From a phage, in the sequence record PV808484.1: a stretch of DNA of 64,000 bases. One strand, given 5' to 3'. Shown in pieces: positions 9,706 to 60,358 of the stretch. The position numbers and the translations under genes are program-made. The notes below the pieces were generated by a model, which made no database searches, had not been told where the DNA came from, and was given only the letters and a program-made list of their open reading frames with translations. The first letter of the stretch is position 1. The number at the start of each line of letters is the position of its first letter.

Positions 9706-9882
9706 ATGGATAAACAAACTACTGTGTACTTAGTAACAAAGAATACCCCAGGCTGGAGCCAATGCAGCACTGTCCCTTACAAGATTTGTGCAACATTAGA
9801 ACTAGCACAACGCGCAGAAGCAGAAGTGGATGCCATGCAATACAGCTATGGTGAGATCATTCCTTTTACTCTTGAACAATAA
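9706..9882 (+). CDS. hypothetical protein (58 aa)
   Basis: GAGAGGAAAAGAAG RBS region, ATG 9706. Confidence 0.4.
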   Translation: MDKQTTVYLVTKNTPGWSQCSTVPYKICATLELAQRAEAEVDAMQYSYGEIIPFTLEQ

Positions 9883-9893
9883 GGAGTTGTGTA

Positions 9894-10346
9894 ATGTTTG
9901 AAATTGGTAAAGTGTATCGTTTTAAGAACGCATCTTATATCCGTAAGTTTGCTAATGTGTCTGAGTGCAATAGCAGGATTGCTTCTTTCTTAGGTGATTC
10001 CTGTTTTCGTGTATTAGATGTGGATGCCTGGTATGGTGTCACTTCTTTGCAATCCTTAGCAGGAGAGCAAGAAATTATCACTCAAAATGAAGGAGACTTT
10101 GTTCTGTGTTACACATTGCTTGCAGAAAGTGAGTTTGAGTATTTTGTAGAAGTATTAGAAGAAGCACCAAAAAGTAAACACGAAGAGAAATACCTGCTTG
10201 TAGTGGATGGAGTTCCGATCATGGAAACCACCTCCCGTGAGGAAGTTGAAAAAGAGGCAAAACGTTACAAGCTGGATCGTACACAGAGTGTAGTTGAAGT
10301 CTATTCTCTTGTTGGTGTTGCAGATGTTCATGTGAACATTGTATAA
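9894..10346 (+). CDS. hypothetical protein
   Basis: ORF track; AAGGAG RBS. Confidence 0.5.
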   Translation: MFEIGKVYRFKNASYIRKFANVSECNSRIASFLGDSCFRVLDVDAWYGVTSLQSLAGEQEIITQNEGDFVLCYTLLAESEFEYFVEVLEEAPKSKHEEKYLLVVDGVPIMETTSREEVEKEAKRYKLDRTQSVVEVYSLVGVADVHVNIV

Positions 10347-10349
10347 TAT

Positions 10350-10562
10350 ATGTGTAATGATAGATACATTCTTCGTGTATCTGATAAGTCTCCTATGTTT
10401 GACTGGCGGGGCTGGTGGCTACTAGCTCCGATGCAAGGTCTGACAGACGTGGAAAAGGAGGCTTATGTGTATACAAAAGAAGAGATAGAAGATAGCCTTT
10501 ATTTGACAGATAACATTAAGAATGGTATCTTTGAGTGTAAATTGAAAGGAGAGGAAGAATGA
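10350..10562 (+). CDS. hypothetical protein
   Basis: ORF track. Confidence 0.4.
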   Translation: MCNDRYILRVSDKSPMFDWRGWWLLAPMQGLTDVEKEAYVYTKEEIEDSLYLTDNIKNGIFECKLKGEEE

Positions 10563-10858
10563 CTATTACAGAAAAACTGCGCTGTATTGCAAAGCAAAGT
10601 GGAGAAGGTTTATGGTTTCCTATTGAGGAAATTATTCAGGACTGTTATGATCAGGCTAAGACTGGCAAATACTCCAAAGCATTTAAACCGTCTGTTTTCG
10701 GTTTGGATGACTATCCAAAAAATGAACAAGCAAAGAAACGACAAGTTGATTTGATTGATCTGGCTATGGAAGCACTACGAGAGCATGGACTTAGTAAGGT
10801 GTATGCTTTAAACACCAAAGAGGGCTTTGTAGATTCCGTGATCGTAGACTGGTATTAA
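10559..10858 (+). CDS. hypothetical protein
   Basis: ORF track; ATGA overlap. Confidence 0.45.
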   Translation: MTITEKLRCIAKQSGEGLWFPIEEIIQDCYDQAKTGKYSKAFKPSVFGLDDYPKNEQAKKRQVDLIDLAMEALREHGLSKVYALNTKEGFVDSVIVDWY

Positions 10859-10867
10859 GGAGAAGTC

Positions 10868-11236
10868 ATGCAAGAGAATAGTAAAGTGTGTAGCATGAAA
10901 AGCAGCCCCTATTTGCTACAATTTTATGAGTGGTGGTTAGAACAAGAAGATACAAACTTTAGCAAAAAACATTATGGTCTTTGCACGTGTCTTGTAGACT
11001 TCTTGTACAATATTGCTTTGATAAAAGATGTTGAGAATGTAGCAAAGCTCCAATCCTCTGTACGAGAGGAAATGAAGGAACAATTTAAGAAAGCGGGTTT
11101 GAACCATTTACATCCGTTTAATACGGATTTCTCGCACTACTTTACGGAAACAGAGCTAGGCATTGCACACCTTAATAAAGAACGTGTACAATGGGTGATT
11201 GATCGTATTCGTGATATGGAGGAATACAATGGTTAA
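10868..11236 (+). CDS. hypothetical protein, paralog family A member 3
   Basis: AAGGAG RBS; motifs FYEWW, GLCTCL, HPFN, VQWVIDRI. Confidence 0.5.
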   Translation: MQENSKVCSMKSSPYLLQFYEWWLEQEDTNFSKKHYGLCTCLVDFLYNIALIKDVENVAKLQSSVREEMKEQFKKAGLNHLHPFNTDFSHYFTETELGIAHLNKERVQWVIDRIRDMEEYNG

Positions 11237-21155: not shown

Positions 21156-21968
21156 TTACTTAGTCAAATGATCTTCTATCATTTTTATGAAAGCAGGATT
21201 GCTAAAAGCATCTGCTGCCTTTTCTCTATAAACAAAGACTCCTCTATCTTCGTAAAGAAGAGTTTCTTCGTAATTAATTCCTGGGTTAACAACAATCATT
21301 TTTGTACCCATATTAAGTGCAGGGAATAATTCCCAATTAAAATTGATAACTTGGTTTGAACATCCTACTACAACAACCAAATCTTGCATGGTCAAAGTAT
21401 CAAACAAGTGAGCCATATCTGCATACAAAGGTGCAGCCTCACCAAAAAATACAACATTAGGCTTCACCCAGTTATAATCATCTATGTTTATACTATTGTA
21501 ACCAATGTCTACCAGTGTTTTGTAATCTCCAGGATGCATACGGTAAACTACTTCAGGAAGATACCCGTGCACGTGAATAACAGAATCCCTGTCCACACCT
21601 GCTCGCTCTAGTAGATCATCAACGTTTGTTGTCAAGTTTACTACTTGGTTAGGATATTCCTTAAACCACTTTGCTATTTGAATATGTGCAGCATTAGGTT
21701 GTACATCTTTAAGCTCAACACGTCTTTTGTTATAAAATTCGTGTGTTTTGGCATACAAGTCCATACCGTTCTCGTCTACACCACCGACCACTGGAAGATC
21801 TGGAGATGTTCTCACACGATAACCTGCTTGGAAAGCTCCAATATCGCAGACCTCTTCTAAGTCATATTCTTCCCATAAGGCACGACCACTATCTGTGTCT
21901 GTTCGGAACGTTCGAATCCCACTGTCTGCACTTAAACCTGCGCCACTAACAAAAATTACTCTTCGCAT
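21156..21968 (-). CDS. sirtuin-like (Sir2/CobB family) NAD-dependent protein
   Basis: GAGLSADSGIRTFR, NVDDLLERAG, HVHGYL and VVFFGE match sirtuin signature blocks in order. Confidence 0.75.
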   Translation of the reverse strand: MRRVIFVSGAGLSADSGIRTFRTDTDSGRALWEEYDLEEVCDIGAFQAGYRVRTSPDLPVVGGVDENGMDLYAKTHEFYNKRRVELKDVQPNAAHIQIAKWFKEYPNQVVNLTTNVDDLLERAGVDRDSVIHVHGYLPEVVYRMHPGDYKTLVDIGYNSINIDDYNWVKPNVVFFGEAAPLYADMAHLFDTLTMQDLVVVVGCSNQVINFNWELFPALNMGTKMIVVNPGINYEETLLYEDRGVFVYREKAADAFSNPAFIKMIEDHLTK

Positions 21969-23299: not shown

Positions 23300-24289
23300 C
23301 TATTCCTCCATACATTTAAGAATATGTGCAATGACAGGTATAGTCCAACCGTTACCTAACATCTTATATGCTTGTGTGTTACTACTCACTTTAAAGTAAT
23401 CATCTGGCACACCTTGCAAGCGGCAACACTCTTTAACCGTTAACTTTCTATAATGTACGCCTTCACTCAATTTTTCAAAGGCATCTAGATATCTTCCAGG
23501 TGGAATGTAGGCTAATAGTACGTCTTTAGGCACAGTCGTGAGGCAACGAGTTTTTTCACTGTCCTGAACTTCCAAACAATGTACCAAACGATCAGTTTTA
23601 GATGTACTACGTTTGCCATTTTCATTAATTCTACGCCCATATATTGCTGCCGGATAAAAAACCAGTTGTCTGCGACTCTTTTCAAAATACTGTTCTATAT
23701 TACCACCTTTGGCATAATTTGCATCTATGCAATAAGCCTTATCTCTGTCTACAATACTATCATCTTCAATGATATCTTGCAACACTTCATTGGTAATCTC
23801 CCAGGGTTTTATTTCCCAGTTGCACCAGTATAAACGTTGTCTATTCTGTGCCGTGAAATCTGCGGAGTTAATGAATACGGGATCAACACCTAAGTAACTT
23901 GTGATCACGTTTTCCCACTCCACTTTCATCTTAACGTTTTCAAGCATGAACTTAACATTAGGATTAAACTTTTTAATATGTTCAAGAATTTCAACATATT
24001 CGAAGAATAGCTTAGATCGCGGATCTTGAAAGTTCAAACCCTTACCAGAAGAAGAGAAGCCTTGACACGGACTACCACCTAACAAAAGATCAATTTCTCC
24101 CCACGGGATATCCCATTCTCTCCATTTTGTAACATCACCTAACTGAATAATATCTGGAAAATTTGCTTGGCTTTCAGCTACGGCAAATTTGTCTAATTCT
24201 GAAGCGTAATATGTATCTACTTCAATACCTGCACTTTTTAGCGCAAGCATTCCTCCTGACATACCATCAAAAAGACTTAAAACTTTCAT
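23300..24289 (-). CDS. dcm: DNA (cytosine-5)-methyltransferase
   Basis: LFDGMSGG (motif I), GGSPCQGFS (motif IV), ENV (motif VI). Confidence 0.85.
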   Translation of the reverse strand: MKVLSLFDGMSGGMLALKSAGIEVDTYYASELDKFAVAESQANFPDIIQLGDVTKWREWDIPWGEIDLLLGGSPCQGFSSSGKGLNFQDPRSKLFFEYVEILEHIKKFNPNVKFMLENVKMKVEWENVITSYLGVDPVFINSADFTAQNRQRLYWCNWEIKPWEITNEVLQDIIEDDSIVDRDKAYCIDANYAKGGNIEQYFEKSRRQLVFYPAAIYGRRINENGKRSTSKTDRLVHCLEVQDSEKTRCLTTVPKDVLLAYIPPGRYLDAFEKLSEGVHYRKLTVKECCRLQGVPDDYFKVSSNTQAYKMLGNGWTIPVIAHILKCMEE

Positions 24290-29253: not shown

Positions 29254-29504
29254 TATTCATCCCAATCGTTGTTACGAGCACTTTCAAGAACCTTGACAAC
29301 TTCTGCATACTCTACAGCTAAACCAGCACACACTTCAGCTTGTTTTGCAATTGCTTGTTTAAAGAACATAGCGATTGCAACACTCTGTGTTGTGTGAATG
29401 TTATCTGCTTTAGTTGATACATGAAGATCAAAATCTTCTTCATCAAAGGTGAGTTCCATAGTAACAATAAATTTCTCGGTCATAAAAATGCTCCTCTTAA
29501 ACAA
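29253..29504 (-). CDS. hypothetical protein
   Basis: ORF track. Confidence 0.4.
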   Translation of the reverse strand: MFKRSIFMTEKFIVTMELTFDEEDFDLHVSTKADNIHTTQSVAIAMFFKQAIAKQAEVCAGLAVEYAEVVKVLESARNNDWDE

Positions 29505-30006
29505 AATAGAAAGGTTGAGTTAAACCCAGCCTGTTTTTTGGGTCGTAGACGTACCAAGCATATGCTGTCTTATCAGTACCACCTGCAACAAAAGATGGTC
29601 GTTCAGAAAGAACAATCAAATTTGTTGGTGGATTCTGTTTATGGAATTCCCTTCGTTTAATAGACTCTAGGAACCCAAGACGCAACAAGTATATGCAAAC
29701 GTCTGCTTCTTTTAAGCTCTTTTGCAAGAACTCAAGTGCAAGTTTGAATGGGGGATTTGTGATTATAATATCCGGCTTAGTATGCCATTCGTGGTTAAAA
29801 TAATCTTTCCCTTCTTCTAACTCACAATATTCTGATCCTTCTGGAAAATGTTGATAAATTGCAGCAGCAGCGCCTTTACACGGTTCTGCAAAAATAAAAC
29901 CTTCTTCTTTAAGGTTATTAAAATCTATTACACTAAATAATGCATTTATACATTTTTGTGGAGTAGGATAGTAATCAGTTGGTGGACGATCATACTTATT
30001 TGCCAC
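29497..30006 (-). CDS. DNA N6-adenine methyltransferase (small phage Dam-like)
   Basis: YPTP, EPCKGAAA (AdoMet loop) and IITNPPF motifs. Confidence 0.6.
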   Translation of the reverse strand: MANKYDRPPTDYYPTPQKCINALFSVIDFNNLKEEGFIFAEPCKGAAAAIYQHFPEGSEYCELEEGKDYFNHEWHTKPDIIITNPPFKLALEFLQKSLKEADVCIYLLRLGFLESIKRREFHKQNPPTNLIVLSERPSFVAGGTDKTAYAWYVYDPKNRLGLTQPFYFV

Positions 30007-32399: not shown

Positions 32400-32416
32400 G
32401 TTTGCACTCCTTATAA

Positions 32417-32434
32417 AAGGGGCTTTCGCCCCTT
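32417..32434 (-). terminator. terminator hairpin GGGGCTTTCGCCCC
   Basis: recurrent element. Confidence 0.5.
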
Positions 32435-32437
32435 TGT

Positions 32438-33098: not shown

Positions 33099-33365
33099 TT
33101 ACTCCGCAATCTGAGCCATGAATTCACGTAGTTCAGAAAAACCTCCTACGTGGGTTAGCTGTTCACCATCTTCCACAAAAATCTGAGGAAATGTGCGTGG
33201 TAGAACACCTGTTTTCTCTAAAACCAGATTCTGAATCTGATCTAAAGAATAGTCTTCATCTAAGGTAAGGTATTTAAAATCCTGTTCACGCTGTTCTAGT
33301 AGAATCTTAGCGTTAGTGCAGAAAGGACAATTTGGTTTACCGTAGATAATAAAATTCATTTTCAC
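33099..33365 (-). CDS. glutaredoxin/NrdH-like redoxin
   Basis: N-terminal IYGKPNCPFC active site; next to the nrd genes. Confidence 0.8.
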   Translation of the reverse strand: MKMNFIIYGKPNCPFCTNAKILLEQREQDFKYLTLDEDYSLDQIQNLVLEKTGVLPRTFPQIFVEDGEQLTHVGGFSELREFMAQIAE

Positions 33366-34192
33366 TCCTTGTTTAAAAGTATAGTTAAAGTTCTTACAAT
33401 ACCGCTATCAACACTTCGCGGATTTAAAGTAGGATCTGTTTTTAAATAAGATGTTGCTGGTCTGACTGCTTTGGAATTATAGGTTGAAGCAGACACAGGA
33501 TTAACTGTAACAGATAAATCTATAACAAGAAATATCTTTCGTGCAAAATCATACCAAGAAATATAATCTGCACCTGCATAGTGTACAATTTTACTATTTA
33601 CACCATCTTTTACAAGTTTAAAAATTGTTTCTGCAAGATCAGGTGCATAAGTAGGACATGATAAATGATCACATACTACATTAAATTCTTTTTGACCACC
33701 GTTGTAGCGTTCCAACATAGTTTTCAAAAAGTTATGTCCAAATTCACTATAAACAGAAGCTGTTCTGATAATAAGTGCTGTAGGACAAACTGTTTGTACT
33801 AAAGTTTCACCTAATTGTTTACTGTAACCGTAGGTGTTCAAGGGGTTTGTTTTACTATCTTCTGTGCCAGCAACATGCCCATCAAAAACATAGTCTGTTG
33901 AAATATGTACAAACTGTATCAGTAAATCATTACATGCTTTGGCAATGTTTGTTGCACCGTATGCATTAACATTTATACAGGTGTTAACATCTTCTTCAGC
34001 TTTATCTACTGCCGTGTAAGCCGCACAATTCACAACAACATCAGGCACATGCTGTACAAGACTATTCATAACATCTTTAAAGTTGGTAATGTCTATATCA
34101 CTTGCTTCAATCAAAACAACATCTTCTGGTGCAACTTTTGCCAAAGATTGTCCTAATTGACCTTTTGATCCAAAGACTAAAAATTTTGTCAA
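33362..34192 (-). CDS. rmlD: dTDP-4-dehydrorhamnose reductase
   Basis: VFGSKGQLGQSL N-terminal Rossmann motif, VNCAAYTAVDKAEED, STDYVF, YGYSK; last gene of the rml operon. Confidence 0.85.
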   Translation of the reverse strand: MTKFLVFGSKGQLGQSLAKVAPEDVVLIEASDIDITNFKDVMNSLVQHVPDVVVNCAAYTAVDKAEEDVNTCINVNAYGATNIAKACNDLLIQFVHISTDYVFDGHVAGTEDSKTNPLNTYGYSKQLGETLVQTVCPTALIIRTASVYSEFGHNFLKTMLERYNGGQKEFNVVCDHLSCPTYAPDLAETIFKLVKDGVNSKIVHYAGADYISWYDFARKIFLVIDLSVTVNPVSASTYNSKAVRPATSYLKTDPTLNPRSVDSGIVRTLTILLNKE

Positions 34193-34743
34193 AGTATGAT
34201 CTCCTTTAGTGTTTTTGCTTCCTGATCTTTTTGTGACAAGATAGGTTTAAAATTAATATCATTAAAGATTAAATCAAAACCCCAATCTATATTGATATCT
34301 GGATCATTCCACGCAAGACTACATTCTGAAGTCGGATCGTAATATTCTGTACATTTATATTCAAAATCAGCAATATCGCTAATCACAACAAAGCCATGAG
34401 CGAAACCAGGAGGAATCCAAAATTGTGTTTTATTCTTTTCAGATAAGAGAACACCTACCCATTCTCCAAATGTTGGACTACCAACCCTAATATCTACAGC
34501 AACATCATAAACTTCACCACGAACACAGCGTACTAACTTCCCTTGTGGGTTTTTCTTTTGAAAATGAAGCCCACGTAGAACTCCTCGGATAGAACGTGAA
34601 TGGTTATCTTGGACAAAGTTTTGTTTACCTATGTATTGATCATATAAAGCCTGATTAAAACTTTCTAAGAAAAAGCCACGTTCATCTCCGTAAACGTCAG
34701 GTTGAATGATCAACAAATCTTCGATTTTTGTTGCTTGAATCAT
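34189..34743 (-). CDS. rmlC: dTDP-4-dehydrorhamnose 3,5-epimerase
   Basis: DERGFFLESF, RGLHFQ and WIPPGFAHGF cupin motifs. Confidence 0.85.
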   Translation of the reverse strand: MIQATKIEDLLIIQPDVYGDERGFFLESFNQALYDQYIGKQNFVQDNHSRSIRGVLRGLHFQKKNPQGKLVRCVRGEVYDVAVDIRVGSPTFGEWVGVLLSEKNKTQFWIPPGFAHGFVVISDIADFEYKCTEYYDPTSECSLAWNDPDINIDWGFDLIFNDINFKPILSQKDQEAKTLKEIIL

Positions 34744-34755
34744 TTAATTCCCCTT

Positions 34756-35625
34756 TTATTTTAATTTAAGTAAATACTTACCGTAGTCTGTTTTACTTAA
34801 AACCTCTCCAGAACTTTTTACAGAGTCTAAAGTAATCCATTCATTTTTAAAAGCAATCTCTTCCAGGCATGCAACCTTCATACCTTGTTGCTTCTCTATT
34901 GCATGAACAAATTGAGATGCTTCCATAAGACTTTCATGTGTTCCTGTATCCAGCCAAGTGAAACCTCTTCCTAGCTTACAGACACGTAAAGCCTTTTCTT
35001 TCCAGTACATCTCATTTATATCTGTGATCTCTAACTCCCCTCTAGCAGAAGGCTTAACGCTTTTAGCTTTCTGTATAACAGAATTATCGTAAAAGTACAA
35101 GCCTGTAATTGCATAGTTGCTTTTTGGTGCTTTTGGTTTTTCTTCAATACTTACTACTGTACCTTCAGAATCAAACTCAACAACACCAAATCTTTCAGGA
35201 TCATTTACGTGATACCCAAAAATATTAGCTCCACCATTCTTTTCAATATGTTCTCTAGCAGAATCTAAAATGCTACCAAAACTCTGACCAAAGAATAAAT
35301 TATCACCTAGAACAAGTGCTACAGAATCTTCACCAATAAAGCTCTCACCAATAATAAACGCTTCTGCTAAACCTTTTGGGCTGTCCTGTATTGCATACTG
35401 TAGGGAAACACCAAAAGAAGAACCATCACCTAGAAGATTTACAAAATTAATTTGATCTTCTGGTGTTGTAATTATTAGTATTTCCCTAATTCCAGAAAGC
35501 ATTAGGACAGAGAGTGGATAATAAATCATAGGTTTATCGTAAATTGGTAATAGTTGTTTACTAACCCCTTTAGTAACTGGGTAAAGTCTTGTCCCACTAC
35601 CACCCGCTAAGATAATACCTTTCAT
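34756..35625 (-). CDS. rmlA: glucose-1-phosphate thymidylyltransferase
   Basis: [39 protein letters not shown] is close to the enterobacterial RfbA N-terminus. Confidence 0.95.
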
Positions 35626-35633
35626 ACTCCTCC

Positions 35634-36623
35634 TTAAACTTTATTTTCCCACCACTCTTTGTTATCTACATACCAATCAATGGTTGAATAAAGTTTTTCT
35701 TCAAATGTGCCTTTAGCTTTCCACCCTAATTCCTTTTCAATCTTATAAGGATTCACTTCATATCTTAAATCATGCCCAGGTCTATCTGTAACCATCTCAA
35801 TGAGGCTACAAGCATCTGTTTCAGATGGATATACCGCATCCATATAATCACAAATCATATAGATTACATCAATATTAGTTCTAGGGTTTCTGCTCCCAAT
35901 ATTATATGTCTCTCCAGATTTGCCTTTAGTTACTACCAGGTGTAATGCTTCTGCGTGATCATCAACGTATAGCCAATCTCTTACTTGAAGACCATCGCCA
36001 TAAACAGGGATTGGTTTATTCATTAAGATATTTGTTATCGTCTTAGGTATTAGTTTTTCTGGATGATGATATGCTCCAAAATTATTTGAACAATTTGTTA
36101 TAACTGTCGGAATACCATAAGTACGATGCCACGCTCTTACCAAATGATCGCTTGCAGCTTTAGATGCAGCATATGGACTACTTGGTTTATAAGGATTCTG
36201 TTCTGTAAACGGATAATCCCCTTCTTCCATATCACCATACACTTCATCTGTTGAAATATGATGGAACATTTTAAGATTTGATTTATCTCCCATTAAACGA
36301 ACAGCTTCTAGAAGATTAAATGTTCCAACAATATTTGAATTTATAAAAACACTCGGTGATGCTATTGAATTATCTACGTGACTCTCTGCTGCAAGATGCA
36401 TTATATAATCTGGATTAACATCTGCCACAATCTTAGCAGTTAACTGCGCATTTGTCAAGTCAACACGACAAAACTTTACATTAGGTGTTTCTGATAAATT
36501 TCTAGGGTCTGAAGCGTAACCCCATTTATCTATAACGTAAATATCATTCTTAGTATTTTTAGCTAGGAAACGAACTACCGCACTTCCAATAAAGCCTAAA
36601 CCACCTGTTACTAAGTATTTCAT
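35634..36623 (-). CDS. rmlB: dTDP-glucose 4,6-dehydratase
   Basis: [19 protein letters not shown], catalytic [11 protein letters not shown] (YxxxK), ISTDEVYG. Confidence 0.9.
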
Positions 36624-36817
36624 TTAGTCTCCTTCCAATTATTACCTTCAGTAAAAATAATACCTTCATAAAACAACCATCTGGAACCTTTTTCAACAGG
36701 AACAGGAAGCTCTTCTTCAGTAAAGTTATAAACCTCTCTAGCATCTTCTAAAAGTGATGCAAATGTTTTTGGACTTACTGTTACGCGAGGAGCATTGATC
36801 AATTGATCTAGCATCAT
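36620..36817 (-). CDS. hypothetical protein
   Basis: start moved to internal Met with AAGGAGG RBS at 36821-36830. Confidence 0.4.
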   Translation of the reverse strand: MMLDQLINAPRVTVSPKTFASLLEDAREVYNFTEEELPVPVEKGSRWLFYEGIIFTEGNNWKETK

Positions 36818-36830
36818 TCTACTATCCTCC

Positions 36831-37157
36831 TTACCAAACGTGTTGAGAAATAATAGTTTCCGTTTCAATGTTATATTTTTCAAGAAGTTGTGCATAGGCT
36901 TCTTTTGCATTTTTATTTAGTTGCTCAAGATCTACAGCTACACTTCCTTCGCCACCTTCTAAATAAATGCCATATATGCAATAAGATTCATCAGCGTCAT
37001 AGAAAGGTGAGATACGGCTTAAATCAAGACCTTCTTGTAAGAACCAATTAAAATCTCCATCAAATTCTTCTTCAATTCTAGGATCTTCTCCTACAGCCTC
37101 TTCCCATTTATTAAAAGGTGCACCCTGTAACATACGCCATTCAGTGTCAACTCCCAT
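36831..37157 (-). CDS. hypothetical acidic protein
   Basis: ORF track. Confidence 0.45.
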   Translation of the reverse strand: MGVDTEWRMLQGAPFNKWEEAVGEDPRIEEEFDGDFNWFLQEGLDLSRISPFYDADESYCIYGIYLEGGEGSVAVDLEQLNKNAKEAYAQLLEKYNIETETIISQHVW

Positions 37158-37683: not shown

Positions 37684-38768
37684 TAAAAGTCTAACTCCTC
37701 GTCATCACTTACATCTTTATTTGCTGAATTCAGTTTGTAAGCTGTAATTTGGATCTCCTGTGCTGCTGCTTGAATTTGATCTGGATTTAACCAAACATCC
37801 ATCCAAGGCAGTGGACTTTTCTTCGGTGCACGGAATTTGTGTTTCATTTTCAGTCTGCGATAGATAGGCGCGGCATTGAAGTAAACCCAAAGTTTGAACA
37901 ACTCTGCGTTACCACCAACGATAACCCTTCCTTCACTAAACAGATAGTCACACCAATCTTCCTCTTGTCCAACTACCGTATCAAGAATTTCTGTCAGAAC
38001 GTCGATATTGTCTTCGTATACTTTTCTCCAGACAGGATCTTTCAGCAGTGCATCAATAATAGCATAATCCATTTTAACGTGCAATAGTTCATCCAACATA
38101 ATTTTTTGAATGAGTTTAGCTGCACCTACAAACAGTTGCTGCTCTGCTAAGGCAAATGTTGCAGCAAAAGATGATATGAATTGAATGCCTTCCAGACCGA
38201 TAAGTGCAATCATTCCTTTCAGAATCAGTAGACGAAGGTTATCATCCTTCTCAATCAGACCTAGAGCATATTTATGTCCTGCCTCTGCCAGATCACTCAT
38301 TATCTCTTCAACTATACCCATCCTCTGGAAGATTCTTTCGTTCTCCATAATCTGATCGATAACTTCATTTGGATTAGGGATACACTGACGAATAATTTCA
38401 GAATATGTCAAAGCGTGTAAAACTTCCATTTCTGATTGCTTCATCATCATTGCACATGCTTCGTTGTTGCTTAAAAATGGTGCAAACAAAGTGATGATTG
38501 ATTTAGCAAGTGAATCATTTTCCCATTGGAAGGATAGGTTTTTGATCATAACATCATAGTTGCTTTTAGAACAAGCTACGAAATCTTTTCGTGTCTGATC
38601 TAAGTTTACTTCGTTTTCATCCCAATCTTGCTGTTTTTGTAGTTTGTACAGACGATGCATTTCTGGGTATGTTACATTAATAGAATCAAAAATACCTAAC
38701 TGTTCTCCCAAAAATACAGGGTAGAAACCTTCTTTGTAAGTGTCGTTGTATAAGTTAATTGCTGCCAT
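37683..38768 (-). CDS. nrdB: ribonucleotide reductase class Ia beta subunit
   Basis: length and conserved-block layout of the R2 subunit; adjacent to nrdA. Confidence 0.85.
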   Translation of the reverse strand: MAAINLYNDTYKEGFYPVFLGEQLGIFDSINVTYPEMHRLYKLQKQQDWDENEVNLDQTRKDFVACSKSNYDVMIKNLSFQWENDSLAKSIITLFAPFLSNNEACAMMMKQSEMEVLHALTYSEIIRQCIPNPNEVIDQIMENERIFQRMGIVEEIMSDLAEAGHKYALGLIEKDDNLRLLILKGMIALIGLEGIQFISSFAATFALAEQQLFVGAAKLIQKIMLDELLHVKMDYAIIDALLKDPVWRKVYEDNIDVLTEILDTVVGQEEDWCDYLFSEGRVIVGGNAELFKLWVYFNAAPIYRRLKMKHKFRAPKKSPLPWMDVWLNPDQIQAAAQEIQITAYKLNSANKDVSDDEELDF

Positions 38769-39090
38769 TTAAATCCTCCACAATATCACACATTGCTTTT
38801 ATTGTATCAATGTGTTCTCTCTCCATACCATCCTCTAGGTAAGCCTTCTCTAATGCGTCCCATACACTCTTTGTGAGTAGTATAGTAACCTCTCCCTCAT
38901 ACCTTGCTCTGGTTAAAGCATACCAGGTAGCTATGGGATCATTGGAAGCCCATATTTCAACACTGGAAAATTGAAAACCTGCAATATAATGACAACACCA
39001 ATCGAATGTAAAATCTTTACTATCTACCAGTGTATAATTTCCCCAGCGTCTTTGTGGTGTTGCCCCAGGTAATACAACTAATGTAGGCAT
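38755..39090 (-). CDS. hypothetical protein
   Basis: start moved to internal Met with AAGGAGGAAT RBS; the ORF-track N-terminus would overlap nrdA. Confidence 0.4.
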   Translation of the reverse strand: MPTLVVLPGATPQRRWGNYTLVDSKDFTFDWCCHYIAGFQFSSVEIWASNDPIATWYALTRARYEGEVTILLTKSVWDALEKAYLEDGMEREHIDTIKAMCDIVEDLNGSN

Positions 39091-39104
39091 ATTCCTCCTT
39101 AAGA

Positions 39105-39125
39105 AAGGGGGACAAAGCCCCCTAG
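39105..39125 (-). terminator. terminator hairpin GGGGGACAAAGCCCCC
   Basis: read directly downstream of nrdA. Confidence 0.5.
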
Positions 39126-39130
39126 TTTCA

Positions 39131-41392
39131 TTACATCTTACAAGCCTCACAACCGGATTCTTCATCCTCTTGAGCGAGTGAGGTTGCCGATTTTGTTCTG
39201 CTATTTAGATAGTACAAAGATTTACCACCAAGTTTTGCAAACTGAAGAATATATTGCATTTCTGATTTAATGGATAAACGACCACCTTCCATCTTAGAAT
39301 AGTCAATCCACTTATCACATGATGCACCTTGATCTAAGAATTTAGTCAATAGTCCATATGCTTCAGCCATATCTTTATCTGGCGTATCCCAAGCCGATTG
39401 GTAAATATCTTTTAGTTTATCGTAATCTGGCACAATAAACAGAACATTACCTTTTTGGCTTTGTTTATAAACTATAGTATCACGTACAGGATACACAGAG
39501 TTAGTCGTATTACTTACAAGACTACTGGACTCATTCGGAGCAATAGCTGCTAATACACTATTTCGGATACCGCCTTGTGCAATGATATCTTGTCGTAAAC
39601 CTTCCCAATCCATTTTAAGTTTAAAATTGCCAATATCATCTACAGCTTTAGCGTAGGTGTCAATAGGCAACCATCCTTCAGGCCATTTGGTTTTATGCAT
39701 CCATTCTGCATTACCTTTCTCTTTTGCCAAACGAAGAGAAGCTCTTGCTAACCAATAATAATGTCTTTCTGCTAATTCGTGAATTAGTTTTTTGCCGTAA
39801 GGATCTGAATAAGTAACAAAATTACTTGCCAGATAATGTGCAAGGTTTGTAATACCTACACCGATAGACCTACGTGCTTTAGCAGTGATTTCGTTATGTT
39901 TAAACGGATACTGCATTGTTTCAATCACATTATCAATAGTTAGAACGGTATAATATGCAACATCTTCATATTCTTCTGGTGTAACACGACCAGCTACAAT
40001 AGAAGACAAGAAGCATAATGCCAATTCTTGATCTTCTGTGTTCTCACCTGTGAAAAGATCCGTCATACTGTGAAATGCTTTCGTAGGTAAGAAAATTTCT
40101 TGGCACAAGTTTGACTGATAAATAACATCCTTAAACGGAGTATGCTTATTAGCATTATCCGCAAAGAACATATAAATACGTCCTGTCTCTGCTCTTTGTG
40201 TAATAATTTCTGCCAGAAGATCTCGTGCTTTTACAAACTTCTTCTTAATTCGTTTGCGACTAACTTTTTCATATACTTCTTCAAACTCTTCCTCGCTTTT
40301 ATAAAGCGCCTCATAGAGTTCTGGTGCTTCGTCATAACTGACTAGCATCCAATCTTTGCCTTTTGCTGCACGGCGCAGGAAAGCATTGTTTACTACAATA
40401 GAGTAATCAAGTTTATCTACTCGTTTTTCACTAACAGTAGTTGGGTTTTTCAAACGTACCAGATCTTCAAAATCAGGTTCTAGTATTGTAAACGTTACTG
40501 TTGCACTTCCACCACGACTTGCTTGTTTTGATGCTCCAACACTTGTTTCCATCCATTTCAGATATGGTAAAAGACCACCGTGAACGATACGGTTGTTCTT
40601 AACACCTTGTCCTGTAGCACGGGTTTGGAGGTTAACACCAATACCTGCATTATTCAATGTATATTCATGAGCAAGATAGTTAGCAATTGCTAAAGATTCT
40701 GCTGTATCGTCTGCTCTAAACAGACAACAAGAAGCACTACCTTTAATCTTAGTACGCAAAGTTGTTAAATAAGGTGATGGTAAATTAATCTTAAGATCAC
40801 TTACGTAGGTATATAGACGTTTAATGTCTTCTACTCTGCGATCTTTTGGTTGGATTTCCATTACCTTCATTGCTACACCAATGAATAAAAATTGTGGTGA
40901 TTCAAAAACCACATCATTGATCGCATCTTTCACAAGATACTTATCAACCATCTGGCGCAGTACGGAATAACCATAAGTTAGGTTTTTATCATGATTGATA
41001 ATTTTACCAATCTCAATAATTTCTTCTTCTGTATAATCCATTTTCCCCCAATAGCCTTTACTTACAGACATATTGTAGAAATCCAGGAGGGAGGGGATAT
41101 TGTGATATCCCCCATGAGCCTGTTTATAGATCATACCAAGAAGTAACCGACCTGCCATATCACTATATGCCTGATCTTTCTTATCAATACATGCTGCTAT
41201 CATAGCTTTATGTAAATCACGAGTAGGCACACCGTCGTAACAACGTTTAACAGCTTCGAGTTCAATTTCAGACCAATTTAATTTACCAGCAGCAAACTCT
41301 GACCATTTACGAAGTTTTTCTGGATTAAATTCTTCTTTCTTGCCGTTTGTTTTTGTTACATAACGGATAGATTTGCTTAGATACTGAGTCAC
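39131..41392 (-). CDS. nrdA: ribonucleotide reductase class Ia alpha subunit
   Basis: 753 aa; SNLCQEIFLPTK, STGRIYM blocks and C-terminal ESGCEACKM tail characteristic of NrdA. Confidence 0.95.
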   Translation of the reverse strand: MTQYLSKSIRYVTKTNGKKEEFNPEKLRKWSEFAAGKLNWSEIELEAVKRCYDGVPTRDLHKAMIAACIDKKDQAYSDMAGRLLLGMIYKQAHGGYHNIPSLLDFYNMSVSKGYWGKMDYTEEEIIEIGKIINHDKNLTYGYSVLRQMVDKYLVKDAINDVVFESPQFLFIGVAMKVMEIQPKDRRVEDIKRLYTYVSDLKINLPSPYLTTLRTKIKGSASCCLFRADDTAESLAIANYLAHEYTLNNAGIGVNLQTRATGQGVKNNRIVHGGLLPYLKWMETSVGASKQASRGGSATVTFTILEPDFEDLVRLKNPTTVSEKRVDKLDYSIVVNNAFLRRAAKGKDWMLVSYDEAPELYEALYKSEEEFEEVYEKVSRKRIKKKFVKARDLLAEIITQRAETGRIYMFFADNANKHTPFKDVIYQSNLCQEIFLPTKAFHSMTDLFTGENTEDQELALCFLSSIVAGRVTPEEYEDVAYYTVLTIDNVIETMQYPFKHNEITAKARRSIGVGITNLAHYLASNFVTYSDPYGKKLIHELAERHYYWLARASLRLAKEKGNAEWMHKTKWPEGWLPIDTYAKAVDDIGNFKLKMDWEGLRQDIIAQGGIRNSVLAAIAPNESSSLVSNTTNSVYPVRDTIVYKQSQKGNVLFIVPDYDKLKDIYQSAWDTPDKDMAEAYGLLTKFLDQGASCDKWIDYSKMEGGRLSIKSEMQYILQFAKLGGKSLYYLNSRTKSATSLAQEDEESGCEACKM

Positions 41393-50042: not shown

Positions 50043-51139
50043 GTACCTGGAATCATCTTACGTACACGTACCCCAACAGGTTTAGTAGGAATACCTTCGT
50101 CTGAAAATTCTTCGTACTCAATTTCAACAAATTGACCAATAAGTGTCAAAGCATTTTCTTCTTTACGATAGTTAATGGTTTCATCTGAATCCTTACGCAT
50201 CAGGAATTCGACTACTTTACCATTTTCCATCTCGCCTGTCAATACCCCGTCACCATTTTTATCACGTTTTGCACTGACTACCTTAACTTCAAGAGTCTGC
50301 CGTGGTTTACGTTTAATAACATCATAAGAACGTTTATCAAACTCGTAAACACCTTGTGCGTTACGATACACAACACCTTCCGCTTTCTCATGCAGAGCTT
50401 TTGCATAGAAAGCATCAAACTGCTCTTGGTTTTCAATGTATTCTGTATGTACTACACAAATGAGTTCATCTAAACCTTTATCTTCAACAACTTCTTTTAG
50501 AGCAGCTAAAACTTGAACCCTCTTCTCAAATGGTACAGATGGCACAGGAACATCATATACATAGTATTTAAGAAGCGGAGTGTTAGCATTATGCTTTTTC
50601 CACGCACTATTAATTTGTTGAAGGCTAAGGACACCCAAACCAGCAAAAACTTCACCGTCAAGAGGATGACCAACTACTTCTTTAATGAAGGTTGGAATTT
50701 CTTTCCAGTGAGGTGGAAGTTTATATACCTCCCCAGCTTTAGATAAACATTCACCTTGCATGTTAATCATTGAACGTAGACCATTCAATTTATATTGTGC
50801 ATAACCTGGGAACAAAACACGATCAGCATAATCTTTATAATCCTGACATTTCATGGGTGTGGAAGGAACATGGTTTTCAGCTTCCTCTTTTGTTTTATAA
50901 TACCCACTCTTAAGTTGCTTTGTCCATTTGGCAAGAGCTTCTATTTCAGCTTGTTCTTCTGCTGTTGTTTCATTTGAGCGACCAATATTTTTAGGTTCTG
51001 CTGTATAAGATTTGCTAGTAATCTTTCCACCTAATTGACCATGAGCAACAGTTACAACACTACCTTCGGTATAGACTGACCACTGTTTAATTTTACCTGT
51101 AGAAGTTTTACCATATAATGTAGGATTAGTTTGTTTCAT
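50024..51139 (-). CDS. ATP-dependent DNA ligase-like nucleotidyltransferase
   Basis: start moved to Met with GGAGG RBS; motif I YKLNGLR (N where D is canonical), motif III HPLDGEV, motif IV EGVVYR, motif V DVIKRK. Confidence 0.7.
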   Translation of the reverse strand: MKQTNPTLYGKTSTGKIKQWSVYTEGSVVTVAHGQLGGKITSKSYTAEPKNIGRSNETTAEEQAEIEALAKWTKQLKSGYYKTKEEAENHVPSTPMKCQDYKDYADRVLFPGYAQYKLNGLRSMINMQGECLSKAGEVYKLPPHWKEIPTFIKEVVGHPLDGEVFAGLGVLSLQQINSAWKKHNANTPLLKYYVYDVPVPSVPFEKRVQVLAALKEVVEDKGLDELICVVHTEYIENQEQFDAFYAKALHEKAEGVVYRNAQGVYEFDKRSYDVIKRKPRQTLEVKVVSAKRDKNGDGVLTGEMENGKVVEFLMRKDSDETINYRKEENALTLIGQFVEIEYEEFSDEGIPTKPVGVRVRKMIPGTWEPAE

Positions 51140-51329
51140 CTTTAACCTCCAGTTGCGAAAGAACCCATTTAGCCATTTCAATTTCACCGTGTAGTCTGCC
51201 TAGTTCATAGGCATCATCAATATTACCACCAGTGTAATCATCCACCATAAAGTAAGGATCTTCGCTACTGTTAGGTGCGTTTGCAATTCTCGTTAGTTCT
51301 TCAATAAATGTCATAGTCACCCTTACCAA
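51126..51329 (-). CDS. hypothetical protein
   Basis: ORF track. Confidence 0.4.
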   Translation of the reverse strand: MVRVTMTFIEELTRIANAPNSSEDPYFMVDDYTGGNIDDAYELGRLHGEIEMAKWVLSQLEVKDETN

Positions 51330-51547
51330 TTATACACAAGAGTTTGAATTTCTTCCATTAAGTCTTCAAGATCTGTATCAACGTATTCAGAAGATGTTGC
51401 CATAAAGTATGTAATCATTGTGAACCCTTCTGAAGAAAGGGCATCAAGGATATCATTAAACATATCTTCCATTTCAGTATTCTCACCAAATGAGAATAAC
51501 ATTTGTTGATCTTCGCTTACACCTTTAACATAGATAGCTGTACTCAT
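51323..51547 (-). CDS. hypothetical acidic protein
   Basis: ORF track. Confidence 0.4.
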   Translation of the reverse strand: MSTAIYVKGVSEDQQMLFSFGENTEMEDMFNDILDALSSEGFTMITYFMATSSEYVDTDLEDLMEEIQTLVYNW

Positions 51548-54288: not shown

Positions 54289-54663
54289 TTAATAGTTAAC
54301 ACGTTTAATTTCAACACCATAGGATGAAATAAAATTTTCCTTAGCTAACATATATTTACCAGCAGCAGAAGGATTTGATGTATGAACATAGATAGTTTTA
54401 AGAGCATCCCATTCACCCGCGTACAACATACATTCTACATCCAAGAACGCATGATATCCTTCTTGATCTTCTCCAAGATCATTGTCGAAGTGTATCTCTG
54501 AGATAGTATTGAAATTATCTTCATCTGAAACAAAAGCTAACCAATCCTCAAAAGATTTTAACCAAATGGCATCCTCATAACCATAATCTTTAGGATTTCT
54601 TAAATCGTCTAACCAAAGAATTTTAGCCACTATCAACCCCCTGCCTGTTTCTCTTCTTTCCAA
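54289..54663 (-). CDS. hypothetical protein
   Basis: ORF track. Confidence 0.45.
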   Translation of the reverse strand: MERRETGRGLIVAKILWLDDLRNPKDYGYEDAIWLKSFEDWLAFVSDEDNFNTISEIHFDNDLGEDQEGYHAFLDVECMLYAGEWDALKTIYVHTSNPSAAGKYMLAKENFISSYGVEIKRVNY

Positions 54664-56677: not shown

Positions 56678-57571
56678 ATGAAAGTTAGTATTCTACATGG
56701 TGTTGACTGTTATGTTACTGATGTAGACGTTAAAGTGTTTACATTCTCTGGTGGAGAACAACATGTTCAATTAGATACGAACCTGTCAGGTTTCAATCAT
56801 GCTACAGACAGAATCTTACTCACATTAGAAGTAAGATCTGCTAAAGACTTGATGACTTTGGTTATGACTAAGAATGCATTGGACAATATGCTATATCATA
56901 AACCATATTGTGTTGATTTACTCATGTTGTATGTACCGTATGCACGACAAGACAGAGTGTGTGAGCCTGGGGAAGCATTTGGAGTTAAAGCATTTGCTTC
57001 TATAATTAACTCATTAAATTTCTCACGTGTTATCGTTGCTGATCCACACAGTGATGTTACTCCAGCAGTGTTTGACAGACTCTGTGTAATACCTCAAGAA
57101 GAGATTGCTTACGAAACTTTAAAATGGAAGTTACGTATGGAGAATTTTGCTCTTGTTAGTCCTGATGGTGGTGCTCTTAAGAAAATATTTAAATTATCTA
57201 AGAAAATGTCTTTAGATGTGTTCTGTGCAGAGAAGGTTAGAGATACCGCAACAGGTGCTATTGTTCGTACAGACATTTCTGTACAGGATTTCAATAAGCG
57301 TAACCTGATGATCGTAGACGATATCTGTGATGGTGGTAGAACTTTTATCGAATTGGCTAAAGTGCTACGTGCTCGTAACGCAGGTAAGATTGAGCTATAT
57401 GTTACACACGGTATCTTTTCTAAAGGTCTTAAAGAGTTAAGTGAGCACTTTGACTGCATTCATTCTCTTAATATATGGGAAGATAACATCCAAGAAGATT
57501 CCGGTGTTCTTGTTAAGAATCAGTCAGATTTGCAACAACAAATTGTATCTCCATACGTGTGGAATTTTTAA
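56678..57571 (+). CDS. prs: ribose-phosphate pyrophosphokinase (Prs)-like enzyme; candidate ADP-ribose pyrophosphokinase
   Basis: YVPYARQDR, VIVADPHSD and MIVDDICDGGRTF phosphoribosyltransferase-type blocks aligned to Prs. Confidence 0.8.
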   Translation: MKVSILHGVDCYVTDVDVKVFTFSGGEQHVQLDTNLSGFNHATDRILLTLEVRSAKDLMTLVMTKNALDNMLYHKPYCVDLLMLYVPYARQDRVCEPGEAFGVKAFASIINSLNFSRVIVADPHSDVTPAVFDRLCVIPQEEIAYETLKWKLRMENFALVSPDGGALKKIFKLSKKMSLDVFCAEKVRDTATGAIVRTDISVQDFNKRNLMIVDDICDGGRTFIELAKVLRARNAGKIELYVTHGIFSKGLKELSEHFDCIHSLNIWEDNIQEDSGVLVKNQSDLQQQIVSPYVWNF

Positions 57572-57581
57572 ATAATAAGTG

Positions 57582-57625
57582 TTGACAATAGGGAGTATGC
57601 TTAGTAAGATACTCCCACACTAACA
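57582..57625 (+). promoter_or_regulatory. TTGACA promoter plus leader hairpin GGGAGTAT-N-ATACTCCC
   Basis: read directly upstream of ATG 57643. Confidence 0.45.
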
Positions 57626-57642
57626 AACAAGGAGACATAACT

Positions 57643-59376
57643 ATGAATATTTTTGCACCTTTTGCTACTGATTGGTATAAACCTGGTCACAAGCAGATGT
57701 ACAACCAAAATACAAAACTTATTTTCTCTAATTTAACTCCTCGTAATGATAAAAACTTTGCACACTATGCAGATCGTGAAGCACGTGGTGTCATTGTTTT
57801 AGGTATTCGTAGAGCAGTAACCGATGCTCTTGTAACTATGTGGGACGGCTTCTTTAAAATGTCTCGTAGTGCAGCAGTAAATAAATTTTATCGTATGTCT
57901 AAAAATGCATTAGGTGCTTCTGCTCCTTCTGCTGAATGTTGGGGAGAATTGCACGATTTAGGTTATCTTCCGCTGGAAGTTCGATCTCTGCCAGAAGGTG
58001 TTTTGTGTCCTATTGGTGTTCCTGTGTTTACTGTGCATAATACTTTAGAAAAATTCTTTTGGTTAACTAATTATGTGGAAACACTGTTGTCAGATGAAAC
58101 TTGGAAGACAATGACTAATGCCACAGCAGCTTTTCAGTATAAGCGTATCGCTATGGCATATGCGATGGCAACGTGTGATAATATTGATCACGTTAACTTC
58201 CAGTGTCATGACTTTAGCCTACGTGGTTTAAGTAATATCGAAGATGGTTATAAGAGTGGTATCGCTCATTTGGCATCGTTCACAGGAACAGATAATATTC
58301 TGGCTATTGAAACTGTACATGATTATTATGGTATTGATTATGATCAGTTTGTTGCAGGTTCTATTCCGGCTACAGAACATTCAGTAGCAACGACTAACAT
58401 TGGAGCTATTGTTGAAGATCTGAAGGAACATTTCCCACGTCTTAAAGATGATGTAGATTGGCTTCGTTATGTAGCAGAAAAAGAGTTTCTTCGTCGTTAT
58501 ATTGAAGAAATTGTTCCAGAAGGTTTTTGTTCATATGTAGCAGATTCTTATGATTACTGGGCTGTATTGACTAACATTCTGGTAGAGTTGAAAGATTCTA
58601 TTATGTCACGAAATGGTCGTCTTGTTATTCGTCCAGACTCAGGAGATCCGGTTAAAGTTGTTGCAGGATACAATATTGAATCTTTTGATAACTATGAAGA
58701 CCTTTTAAATAATGGTATTGCGACAGCCACTGAAGTAGTTCATTTGGCTGATGTTAATAAGTATTACAATGTTCTTCAGGATTGCAGTGTTGCTGACTGT
58801 ATTGATGAAACTTATGAAATTCCTTATTATGAAGCAGTAGGTTCTATTCAAATCCTTTGGGAAGTGTTTGGTGGTACTATCAACCGAAAAGGCTACAAGG
58901 TTCTTGATCAGCATATCGGTATGATTTATGGTGATTCTATTACTGTTGAACGAGAACACGAGATCTTACGCCGACTGAAGAAGAAAGGTTTTGCAGCTTC
59001 CAATATTGTATTTGGTGTTGGTAGTTATACTTATCAGTTCAATACACGAGATACTTTCGGTTTTGCTGTTAAAGCAACAGGTAGTATCATCGGTGAACAC
59101 GAAATTTTGGTAAGTAAGGAGCCTAAAACTGATCCTGGTAAACGCTCTGCAAAAGGCTTTATTAAGGTTGTTAAGGATACCAATGGTAATCTCTCTCTTG
59201 TAGATAATCTTTCTTTTAAAGATATCCAGGATGAAGACAATGAGTTACAAGTTATCTTCAAGAATGGTAAGGTTATTACACCACAAGTAGAAGGACGTGA
59301 TGAAACATTTACTGATATCCGCAACCGTGTTGACGTAGAGGTTCTTCGTACTATGGGAACCATCCAGGTTGACTAA
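57643..59376 (+). CDS. nadV: nicotinamide phosphoribosyltransferase (NAMPT/NadV)-like enzyme
   Basis: N-terminal FATDWYKPGHKQMY block typical of NAMPT; 577 aa with extensions. Confidence 0.85.
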   Translation: MNIFAPFATDWYKPGHKQMYNQNTKLIFSNLTPRNDKNFAHYADREARGVIVLGIRRAVTDALVTMWDGFFKMSRSAAVNKFYRMSKNALGASAPSAECWGELHDLGYLPLEVRSLPEGVLCPIGVPVFTVHNTLEKFFWLTNYVETLLSDETWKTMTNATAAFQYKRIAMAYAMATCDNIDHVNFQCHDFSLRGLSNIEDGYKSGIAHLASFTGTDNILAIETVHDYYGIDYDQFVAGSIPATEHSVATTNIGAIVEDLKEHFPRLKDDVDWLRYVAEKEFLRRYIEEIVPEGFCSYVADSYDYWAVLTNILVELKDSIMSRNGRLVIRPDSGDPVKVVAGYNIESFDNYEDLLNNGIATATEVVHLADVNKYYNVLQDCSVADCIDETYEIPYYEAVGSIQILWEVFGGTINRKGYKVLDQHIGMIYGDSITVEREHEILRRLKKKGFAASNIVFGVGSYTYQFNTRDTFGFAVKATGSIIGEHEILVSKEPKTDPGKRSAKGFIKVVKDTNGNLSLVDNLSFKDIQDEDNELQVIFKNGKVITPQVEGRDETFTDIRNRVDVEVLRTMGTIQVD

Positions 59377-60356: not shown

Positions 60357-60358
60357 AC

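Follow-up and report, generated by a model that had tools for sequence, protein, structure and literature searches.

Genes for the synthesis of dTDP-L-rhamnose (dTDP, deoxythymidine diphosphate) are known from the phi92-like phages of Escherichia coli; in phi92 itself gp064-gp067 are annotated as putative RmlD, RmlC, RmlA and RmlB. Their position in the DNA-metabolism region was called "peculiar" by Olsen (2020), who proposed a rhamnosylation of hydroxymethylated nucleotides. Phi92-like phages were then reported to be "exceptionally susceptible" to restriction-modification "despite a putative dTDP glycosylation machinery" (Maffei 2021), and a 2024 paper restated the rhamnose-modification idea together with the restriction-sensitivity caveat. 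Our literature search returned no paper with an experimental answer on the rhamnose acceptor. The DNA analysed here, a stretch of 64,000 nucleotides from a phage (record PV808484.1, referred to as the window), carries an rml block at positions 33362-36623 of the minus strand. The window belongs to a phi92-like phage of the genus Justusliebigvirus, and its rml block is 98-99% identical to that of 50-odd genomes of the genus (98.7% at the nucleotide level when the entire block is compared with that of phi92). Genes, gene order and genomic slot are all shared with phi92 and the other Justusliebigvirus and Phapecoctavirus genomes, and the differences from phi92 are small and local, for example in the gene between nrdB and nrdA. 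The rml genes are not new: they are annotated in phi92 and dozens of other records and have been discussed in print. With the gene set already catalogued, the remaining question is what use a strictly lytic coliphage makes of an activated deoxy-sugar. The answer that we prefer, with a confidence somewhat below even, is that the rml genes supply rhamnose to a phage-encoded cassette of glycosyltransferases that would build a glycan, with virion proteins as the most likely carriers.

In the initial annotation, four consecutive minus-strand genes were read as the full dTDP-L-rhamnose pathway, and this reading is borne out. The block consists of four adjacent, uninterrupted open reading frames (ORFs) of 329, 289, 184 and 276 codons, encoding RmlB, RmlA, RmlC and RmlD. 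Each product passes the curated NCBIfam cut-off for its equivalog (Table 1), a Pfam scan used as a second check agrees with all four assignments, and the catalytic motifs are kept. These are G7xxGxxG, T125-D-E and Y151xxxK155 in RmlB; G8GSGTRL, E162KP and D226TG in RmlA; the catalytic residues His61, Lys69, Tyr129 and Lys172-Asp173 in RmlC; and G8xxGQxG, T99 and Y121xxxK125 in RmlD. For RmlC and RmlD the motif calls are backed by alignments to PDB entries, with Salmonella RmlC (1dzr, E 5.7e-64) as the top match of RmlC, and proteins from B. anthracis (3sc6) and C. acetobutylicum (1vl0) as those of RmlD. Judged from these features, RmlA would combine glucose-1-phosphate with deoxythymidine triphosphate (dTTP) to give dTDP-glucose, which RmlB would dehydrate to dTDP-4-keto-6-deoxyglucose. 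RmlC is predicted to epimerise this intermediate at C3 and C5, and RmlD to reduce the product of RmlC to dTDP-L-rhamnose.

The rml genes are maintained by purifying selection. Compared to phi92 they show 35 synonymous and 11 non-synonymous differences, with ratios of non-synonymous to synonymous substitution rates (dN/dS) of 0.07 for rmlB, 0.09 for rmlA, 0.05 for rmlC and 0.14 for rmlD; RmlB is 99.1% identical in amino acids to phi92 gp067. Between genera the synonymous sites are saturated, with the Rml proteins still 55-79% identical. All four genes are intact in phi92, phAPEC8 and Tr1, and so is the subset rmlC-rmlD that is kept in KP13-26 and ESCO37. In Justusliebigvirus, Phapecoctavirus and unclassified Stephanstirmvirinae alike, the slot runs from nrdB through small ORFs to rml, followed by glutaredoxin, lysozyme and phoH, and according to the phi92 annotation notes PVP-SE1 possesses the genes flanking the rml insertion while rml itself is absent.

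No glycosyltransferase (GT) is recognisable in the window, as the initial annotation had stated: among 53 ORFs of at least 120 amino acids (aa) and three shorter ones (106-108 aa), a Pfam scan gave no match to such an enzyme. Apart from ThyX and a C5-cytosine methylase, the scan detected enzymes of replication and nucleotide metabolism, as expected. Outside the window, where both glycosyltransferases and base-modifying enzymes were to be looked for, relatives harbor four GT genes; no hydroxymethylase or TET/JBP protein is annotated in the remainder of the Eryne genome. In this close relative, a row of four genes with a glycosyltransferase annotation is found between primase/helicase and endolysin; they correspond to phi92 gp163-166 and phAPEC8 gp071-074. 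In the relatives the cassette is about 70 kb away from rml, that is, beyond the limits of the window. Two of its genes encode GT-B paralogues of ca. 315-337 aa (phrog_7162, with weak matches to Glyco_trans_1_2/1_4), and the other two encode small GT-A enzymes of 228 aa (GT3) and 187 aa (GT4) in which the DxD motifs are invariant. The structure models of GT3 and GT4 show GT-A folds with high confidence (predicted local distance difference test, pLDDT, 88 and 94), and their nearest solved folds are generic GT-A enzymes, including the dTDP-rhamnose-dependent RmlT of Listeria (template-modelling score, TM, 0.39-0.50). A sequence search of both proteins against PDB chains gave nothing meaningful.

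The rml genes and the GT cassette are co-distributed and shrink together. In the phage genome collection, RmlC and GT4 are each found in 55 records at at least 95% identity and in 77 records at 60-80%, and GT3 in 56 and 71 records, respectively. No rV5- or PVP-SE1-type phages occur among the matches listed or in the organism tallies for these three proteins. As noted in the phi92 annotation, the genes on either side of the cassette have homologues in PVP-SE1, which lacks the cassette itself. Both rml and the cassette thus look like insertions specific to the subfamily. Phi92 and phAPEC8 possess four rml and four GT genes, Tr1 combines the complete rml set with three GTs, and KP13-26 has only GT4 and one GT-B enzyme (GT2) along with only rmlC and rmlD. 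The minimal set is rmlCD, GT4 and GT2. In the distant relative UViG_3300031372_000212 from IMG/VR, a gene for an RmlB-like dehydratase/epimerase of the short-chain dehydrogenase/reductase (SDR) type (6565-7629, 30% identity) is inserted between the GT4 and GT3 homologues, so that a sugar-nucleotide enzyme is physically joined to the GT cassette. Additionally, genes of the tellurite-resistance type (TerC, TelA, TerD and vWA-TerF-like) are found a few kb from the cassette in relatives, namely at 1784-8914 of a Logan SRR10097270 contig and at 50330-51433 in Eryne.

Within the pathway, rmlC and rmlD form the conserved core. The slot holds only rmlC-rmlD in Klebsiella phage KP13-26, rmlB-rmlA has been cleanly lost and rmlC-rmlD kept in E. 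coli phage ESCO37, and subfamily records with RmlC outnumber those with RmlA. All Enterobacterales make dTDP-4-keto-6-deoxyglucose via RffH and RffG for the synthesis of enterobacterial common antigen (ECA), and RmlC and RmlD are found in rhamnose-containing serotypes only. Because the hosts all supply the product of RmlB and only some serotypes have RmlC and RmlD, the latter two enzymes represent the critical steps. The rml block finds a match in at least one place in every one of the 5,426 E. coli genomes searched, which would fit a universal occurrence of RffG and RffH. That rmlB-rmlA can be lost while rmlC-rmlD is kept argues that it is the product that matters, not the consumption of dTTP. 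A need for C and D to secure dTDP-L-rhamnose in any host suits the very broad host range of the phi92-like phages (Maffei 2021).

In the mechanism that we propose, the operon, inserted between nrdB and the glutaredoxin gene, would guarantee a rhamnosyl donor in any host. The donor would be used by the cassette (phi92 gp163-166), in which the two GT-B paralogues and the two small DxD-containing GT-A enzymes may build a short rhamnose-containing glycan. The likeliest acceptor would be at least one virion protein, and the particle would then carry a coat of glycans, as do cluster-F mycobacteriophages and giant viruses. Virion proteins are favoured as acceptor on a case that is circumstantial. A passage of PMC11256854, citing Freeman 2023, describes glycosylated capsids in cluster-F mycobacteriophages. 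In giant viruses there is a precedent for the synthesis of rhamnose by virus-encoded enzymes together with capsid glycosylation (PMC9614988). Among mycobacteriophages, GT3 has matches in 66 records, with identities of 25-27% and E values of 1e-6 to 3e-8; those listed are annotated glycosyltransferase genes, and the record examined (Bobi) is a Cheoctovirus, i.e. a member of cluster F1. A scan of IMG/VR revealed 65 viral contigs with relatives of GT4, and in many unrelated smaller phages the GT4 relative travels with a GT3 homologue and one GT-B enzyme. In HK97-like contigs this three-gene GT3/GT-B/GT4 cassette is located between the major capsid and head-completion genes on the same strand, with the portal and prohead protease genes preceding the capsid gene and the cassette. 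The literature search yielded no paper with rhamnose on phage DNA or on virions of Gram-negative phages. The more specific proposal that the Stephanstirmvirinae are the first Gram-negative phages that decorate their own virions with a self-made rhamnose glycan, using two loci with an rmlCD core and two to four GTs, is doubtful.

Several observations weigh against a glycan on virion proteins, or against the link to the cassette on which it depends. The cassette is not in the window, and its presence in the phage from which the window derives is inferred from 55 close relatives. Within one subfamily, shared ancestry is a confounder and explains part of the co-distribution; only the parallel reductions, which are independent events, add to the case. 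The fold matches back the GT-A assignment of GT3 and GT4 and are uninformative on donor or acceptor. The similarity of GT3 to mycobacteriophage GTs is only 25-27%, and the same protein weakly resembles DNA glycosyltransferases, namely the TET-associated glycosyltransferases (TAGT, E 6.8e-5) and a phrog of T-even DNA alpha-glucosyltransferases (E 5e-5). In phi92-like genomes the cassette is situated among replication and lysis genes and not in the structural module. Head genes are present around the 13 distant cassettes of small phages, and four of these loci have a portal gene at a distance of up to 6 kb, which is about what chance would give for 40-kb phages; of the evidence on head-gene proximity the exact insertion site alone is informative, and it may reflect a single lineage. 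In the literature searched, no deoxyhexose is reported on any phi92-like virion protein.

One candidate acceptor was considered and rejected. The tail sheath protein ends in an 11-residue C-terminal tail rich in Ser, Asn and Thr, which is absent in Phapecoctavirus despite the full rml and GT set. The tail is present in the sheath proteins of Justusliebigvirus (Eryne 9495-10901) and of the Klebsiella relative, and that of Vequintavirus FV3 is different.

Instead of acting on the virion, the Rml enzymes and GTs could remodel the host envelope, altering or starving host surface glycans during infection. We consider this improbable. Either dTDP-4-keto-6-deoxyglucose would be diverted from the Fuc4NAc of ECA, or rhamnose would be added to lipid-linked glycans, and as a result receptors would be masked, superinfection blocked or progeny kept off debris. 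RmlC and RmlD indeed act on the branch-point intermediate of ECA, and some members keep rmlCD alone. ECA was inferred to be the primary receptor of the Vequintavirinae, with which the phi92-like phages were treated together, from a shared receptor-binding-protein homologue and host range (Maffei 2021). Furthermore, GT-B enzymes like those of the GT4 family commonly use lipid-linked acceptors, and some of the uncultivated viral genomes with a cassette have IMG identifiers that resemble an isolate-genome, possibly prophage, origin. However, these phages are strictly lytic with short cycles, for which turnover of surface glycans may be too slow, and no flippase, polymerase or membrane-anchored transferase was seen beside the rml or GT genes. 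Diversion alone also explains neither the co-variation of four GTs with rml nor the usual keeping of rmlA and rmlB.

Phage DNA was among the acceptors suggested in the initial annotation, and it is disfavoured here as an unlikely one. According to this explanation, already put forward by Olsen (2020), a phage GT would place rhamnose on a modified DNA base, perhaps confined to the sites that a phage methyltransferase recognises, as a protection against nucleases. It agrees with the location of the operon in the nucleotide-metabolism block beside nrdAB, thyX and tdk and with the C5-cytosine methylase in the window. GT3 is weakly similar to the TAGT family (23.3 bits against a Pfam cut-off of 27.5) and to the T-even beta-glucosyl-hydroxymethylcytosine (HMC) alpha-glucosyltransferases (phrog_842, E 5.2e-5), the TAGT match being below threshold and covering 60 residues only. 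The marked restriction sensitivity of phi92-like phages argues against such a modification, but a sequence-restricted one could leave the DNA sensitive to most restriction enzymes. Four GTs exceed the usual need of base modification, and no DNA-modification family occurs among the neighbours of homologous cassettes at 13 loci. Neither a ThyA-type dCMP/dUMP hydroxymethylase (PF00303) nor a Tet_JBP dioxygenase was detected in the Pfam scan of the window, which divergent enzymes could escape, and the Eryne annotation agrees with this. The 200-aa ORF gp171 near the cassette was considered as a TET-like enzyme and rejected, having a faint cupin match (E 0.0036) without the HxD...H motif.

Some methyltransferase genes deserve mention as such. 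The window encodes the C5-cytosine DNA methylase and a small methyltransferase at 23300-24289 and 29497-30006, both on the minus strand, and Eryne has three more annotated DNA methyltransferases (3848-4327, 34379-35110 and 75424-75975), yet the phages are reported to be very sensitive to restriction.

Manipulation of the nucleotide pool without any glycosyl transfer is very unlikely. In this case dTDP-L-rhamnose would spare dTTP as a feedback inhibitor of the host RmlA or RffH, or would act as a buffer of thymidine nucleotides. Inhibition of RmlA by dTDP-rhamnose is established biochemistry, and the operon lies among genes that raise dTTP (nrdAB, thyX, tdk and a deoxyribonucleotidase). Nevertheless, the phage RmlA and RmlB would themselves spend dTTP, it is left unexplained why rml and the GT cassette strictly co-occur and have been reduced in parallel, and we know of no precedent for manipulation of the pool by dTDP-rhamnose.

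The initial annotation further described the genes as host-like and probably captured from a host O-antigen locus, for which the N-terminus of RmlA was cited. This origin is contradicted by several lines of evidence. In a DNA search of 5,426 complete E. coli genomes, no match exceeded 65.6% identity and none covered more than 52% of the rml block. The gene order is B-A-C-D in the phage and rfbB-D-A-C in E. coli. Identities to the Rfb proteins of an E. coli O-antigen locus (B, 56.8%; A, 64.7%; C, 55.3%; D, 36.1%) are lower than those to the copies of phAPEC8 (63, 72, 63 and 55%) or of Citrobacter phage Tr1 (79, 77, 73 and 57%). The scores fall far short of the NCBIfam models specific for the enterobacterial enzymes (PRK15480 RfbA, 441.8 against a cut-off of 588; PRK09987 RfbD, 138.6 against 308; PRK10084 and PRK10217 for RfbB/RffG, 418.1 against 649 and 407.1 against 698). 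The conserved N-terminus of RmlA is the nucleotide-binding motif that is universal in the family, and as such it does not indicate a host origin.

The search for nearest relatives was carried out with RmlD alone among the four Rml proteins. It returned an unbroken series of phage proteins, falling from 98 to 50% identity and encoded on contigs of 140-156 kb; at the switch to cellular proteins of 40-45% identity, of which the named ones are from Bacteroidota, the score drops from 274 to 206 bits. RmlD, which is 36% identical to E. coli RfbD and 55-62% identical to other phage copies, belongs to an old phage-only clade. As far as these comparisons indicate, the operon is of an old phage lineage that was inherited vertically in the Stephanstirmvirinae and not a recent acquisition from a host. 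Passive carriage of recently captured O-antigen genes, as passengers or morons without a role of their own, is hardly credible and is refuted at the level tested: the features held in common with enterobacterial RfbA (the N-terminus and the overall family) and the low GC content of 34.9%, like that of O-antigen loci, are set against the DNA identities, gene order, specific models and RmlD clade given above and against the fact that purifying selection has kept the genes at one position in different genera.

The initial annotation correctly placed rml in the nucleotide-metabolism block between a glutaredoxin gene and the nrdB/nrdA/thyX/tdk cluster, and the range it gave, 33099-36623, holds all four rml genes but takes in the glutaredoxin gene as well. 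This gene is part of the ribonucleotide-reductase set and is outside the rhamnose pathway. Its phi92 counterpart gp063 is noted in the phi92 annotation as similar to PVP-SE1 gp141, and because of this resemblance the glutaredoxin gene is taken to predate the rml insertion.

Table 1. Coordinates and family assignments of the rml genes and the adjoining genes in the window
Feature	Position	Strand	Length and start	Assignment
rmlB, dTDP-glucose 4,6-dehydratase	35634..36623	-	329 aa	TIGR01181 equivalog, 444.5 bits (cut-off 365.1)
rmlA, glucose-1-phosphate thymidylyltransferase	34756..35625	-	289 aa	TIGR01207 equivalog, 471.5 bits (cut-off 360.65)
rmlC, dTDP-4-dehydrorhamnose 3,5-epimerase	34189..34743	-	184 aa	TIGR01221 equivalog, 259.8 bits (cut-off 155.75)
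rmlD, dTDP-4-dehydrorhamnose reductase	33362..34192	-	276 aa, TTG start	TIGR01214 equivalog, 253.5 bits (cut-off 224.05)
small ORF 5' of rmlB	36620..36910	-		From ORF list; no Pfam match; phi92 counterpart gp068 annotated shorter (65 aa)
glutaredoxin	33099..33359	-	86 aa from ATG (start used in phi92)	PF00462, E 9.4e-12

Overlaps of the ATGA type, which had been described as typical of phage operons, are present at just two of the five junctions: four bases are shared between the small ORF and rmlB (ATGA) and between rmlC and rmlD (TTGA), and the other three junctions are without overlap. The gap between rmlB and rmlA is 8 nt, and rmlA has its own Shine-Dalgarno site (GGAGGAG); that between rmlA and rmlC is 12 nt, again with an own Shine-Dalgarno site. 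No overlap exists between rmlD and the glutaredoxin gene when the latter starts at ATG. The start codon of rmlB overlaps the stop codon of the small ORF, and AAGGAG is found 6 nt 5' of rmlB; the small ORF is a predicted translationally coupled neighbour of rmlB. It is one of a run of small ORFs separating nrdB from rmlB; in the phi92 annotation these are listed without a counterpart in PVP-SE1, in contrast to the nrdB and glutaredoxin genes on either side. A scan for promoters and terminators between 31.5 and 41.6 kb gave the same counts as shuffled sequence and is uninformative on transcription units. A perfect GC-rich palindrome, AAAGGGGC-TTTC-GCCCCTTT, is located at 32416-32435, with lysozyme on one side and phoH on the other, and may act as a bidirectional terminator that closes the transcription unit containing rml. 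A 136-aa ORF (38755-39165, minus strand) is found between nrdB and nrdA in the window; it is 50% identical to its phAPEC8 counterpart, and in phi92 an HNH endonuclease occupies this position instead. This looks like a presence/absence polymorphism of a homing endonuclease.

Some further features of the window and of related records were observed. A cluster of 14 tRNA genes (two each for Leu and Ser, and one each for Lys, Tyr, Asn, Thr, Gly, Gln, Pro, Phe, Met and Ile) is located at 60271-62876 on the plus strand. A protein similar to phosphoribosyl pyrophosphate (PRPP) synthetase (56678-57571, plus strand) adjoins a 577-aa phosphoribosyltransferase of the NAPRTase/NadV type (57643-59376, plus strand), and this pair for salvage of nicotinamide adenine dinucleotide (NAD), at 56678-59376, could counter NAD-depleting defence systems. 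The minus strand encodes a Sir2-family protein at 21156-21968 and, at 54289-54663, a 124-aa protein with a cREC_REC domain ('cyclic-phosphate processing receiver', E 4e-14). Five GenBank records (MG065639, MG065645, MG065656, MG065689 and MG065650) are labelled 'Campylobacter phage' with C. jejuni as host; they either share ca. 98% identity with phi92-like phages of E. coli or contain genes of the Phapecoctavirus type, and their host assignments are probably wrong.

The fate of the sugar is of practical relevance, as the phi92-like phages have among the broadest host ranges on E. coli and are represented in collections for therapy and biocontrol. If the sugar is on the virion, antibody recognition, stability and pharmacokinetics of therapeutic phages would be affected, as reported for mycobacteriophages; if it is on DNA, it would constitute a new base modification, and if on the host envelope, a new way in which lytic phages manipulate receptors. 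The link between rml and the GTs, with the minimal set of rmlCD, GT4 and GT2, narrows the acceptor question to a few genes. Should the proposed use of rhamnose on virions be true, the cassette homologues in the head operons of small phages would suggest that virion glycosylation is widespread and extends beyond the actinobacteriophages.

Compared to the rmlBDAC/rfbBDAC O-antigen operons of E. coli and Salmonella, the phage block encodes the same four enzyme families, which pass the same general equivalog models and are predicted to perform the same chemistry. It differs in gene order (B-A-C-D and not B-D-A-C), in protein sequence (36-65% identity) and in its membership of a distinct phage clade. 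Moreover, the phage genes have no neighbouring wzx, wzy or O-unit transferase gene and are embedded in the nucleotide-metabolism block. Similar to the DNA glucosylation systems of the T-even phages and to those of TET/TAGT phages, the phi92-like phages encode GTs of their own along with nucleotide-metabolism genes, and GT3 is weakly similar to enzymes of these systems. In contrast to them, no hydroxymethylase or TET enzyme was found, the phages are restriction-sensitive, and the donor would be a dTDP-sugar instead of a UDP-sugar.

The virion glycosylation of mycobacteriophages such as Che8 (cluster F) also depends on phage-encoded GTs, and GT3 is detectably homologous to the GTs of Cheoctovirus. 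In small phages, homologous cassettes are located in the head operon. The phi92-like phages differ from the mycobacteriophages in that they are myoviruses of a Gram-negative host, have their GTs outside the structural module and encode their own nucleotide-sugar pathway. In giant viruses (chlorovirus, Mimivirus), the synthesis of activated rhamnose and the transferases are virus-encoded as well, and the glycans are found on capsids or fibrils (PMC9614988). These viruses make UDP- or GDP-rhamnose with bifunctional enzymes of the eukaryotic type, whereas the phage described here encodes the bacterial four-enzyme route to dTDP-rhamnose.

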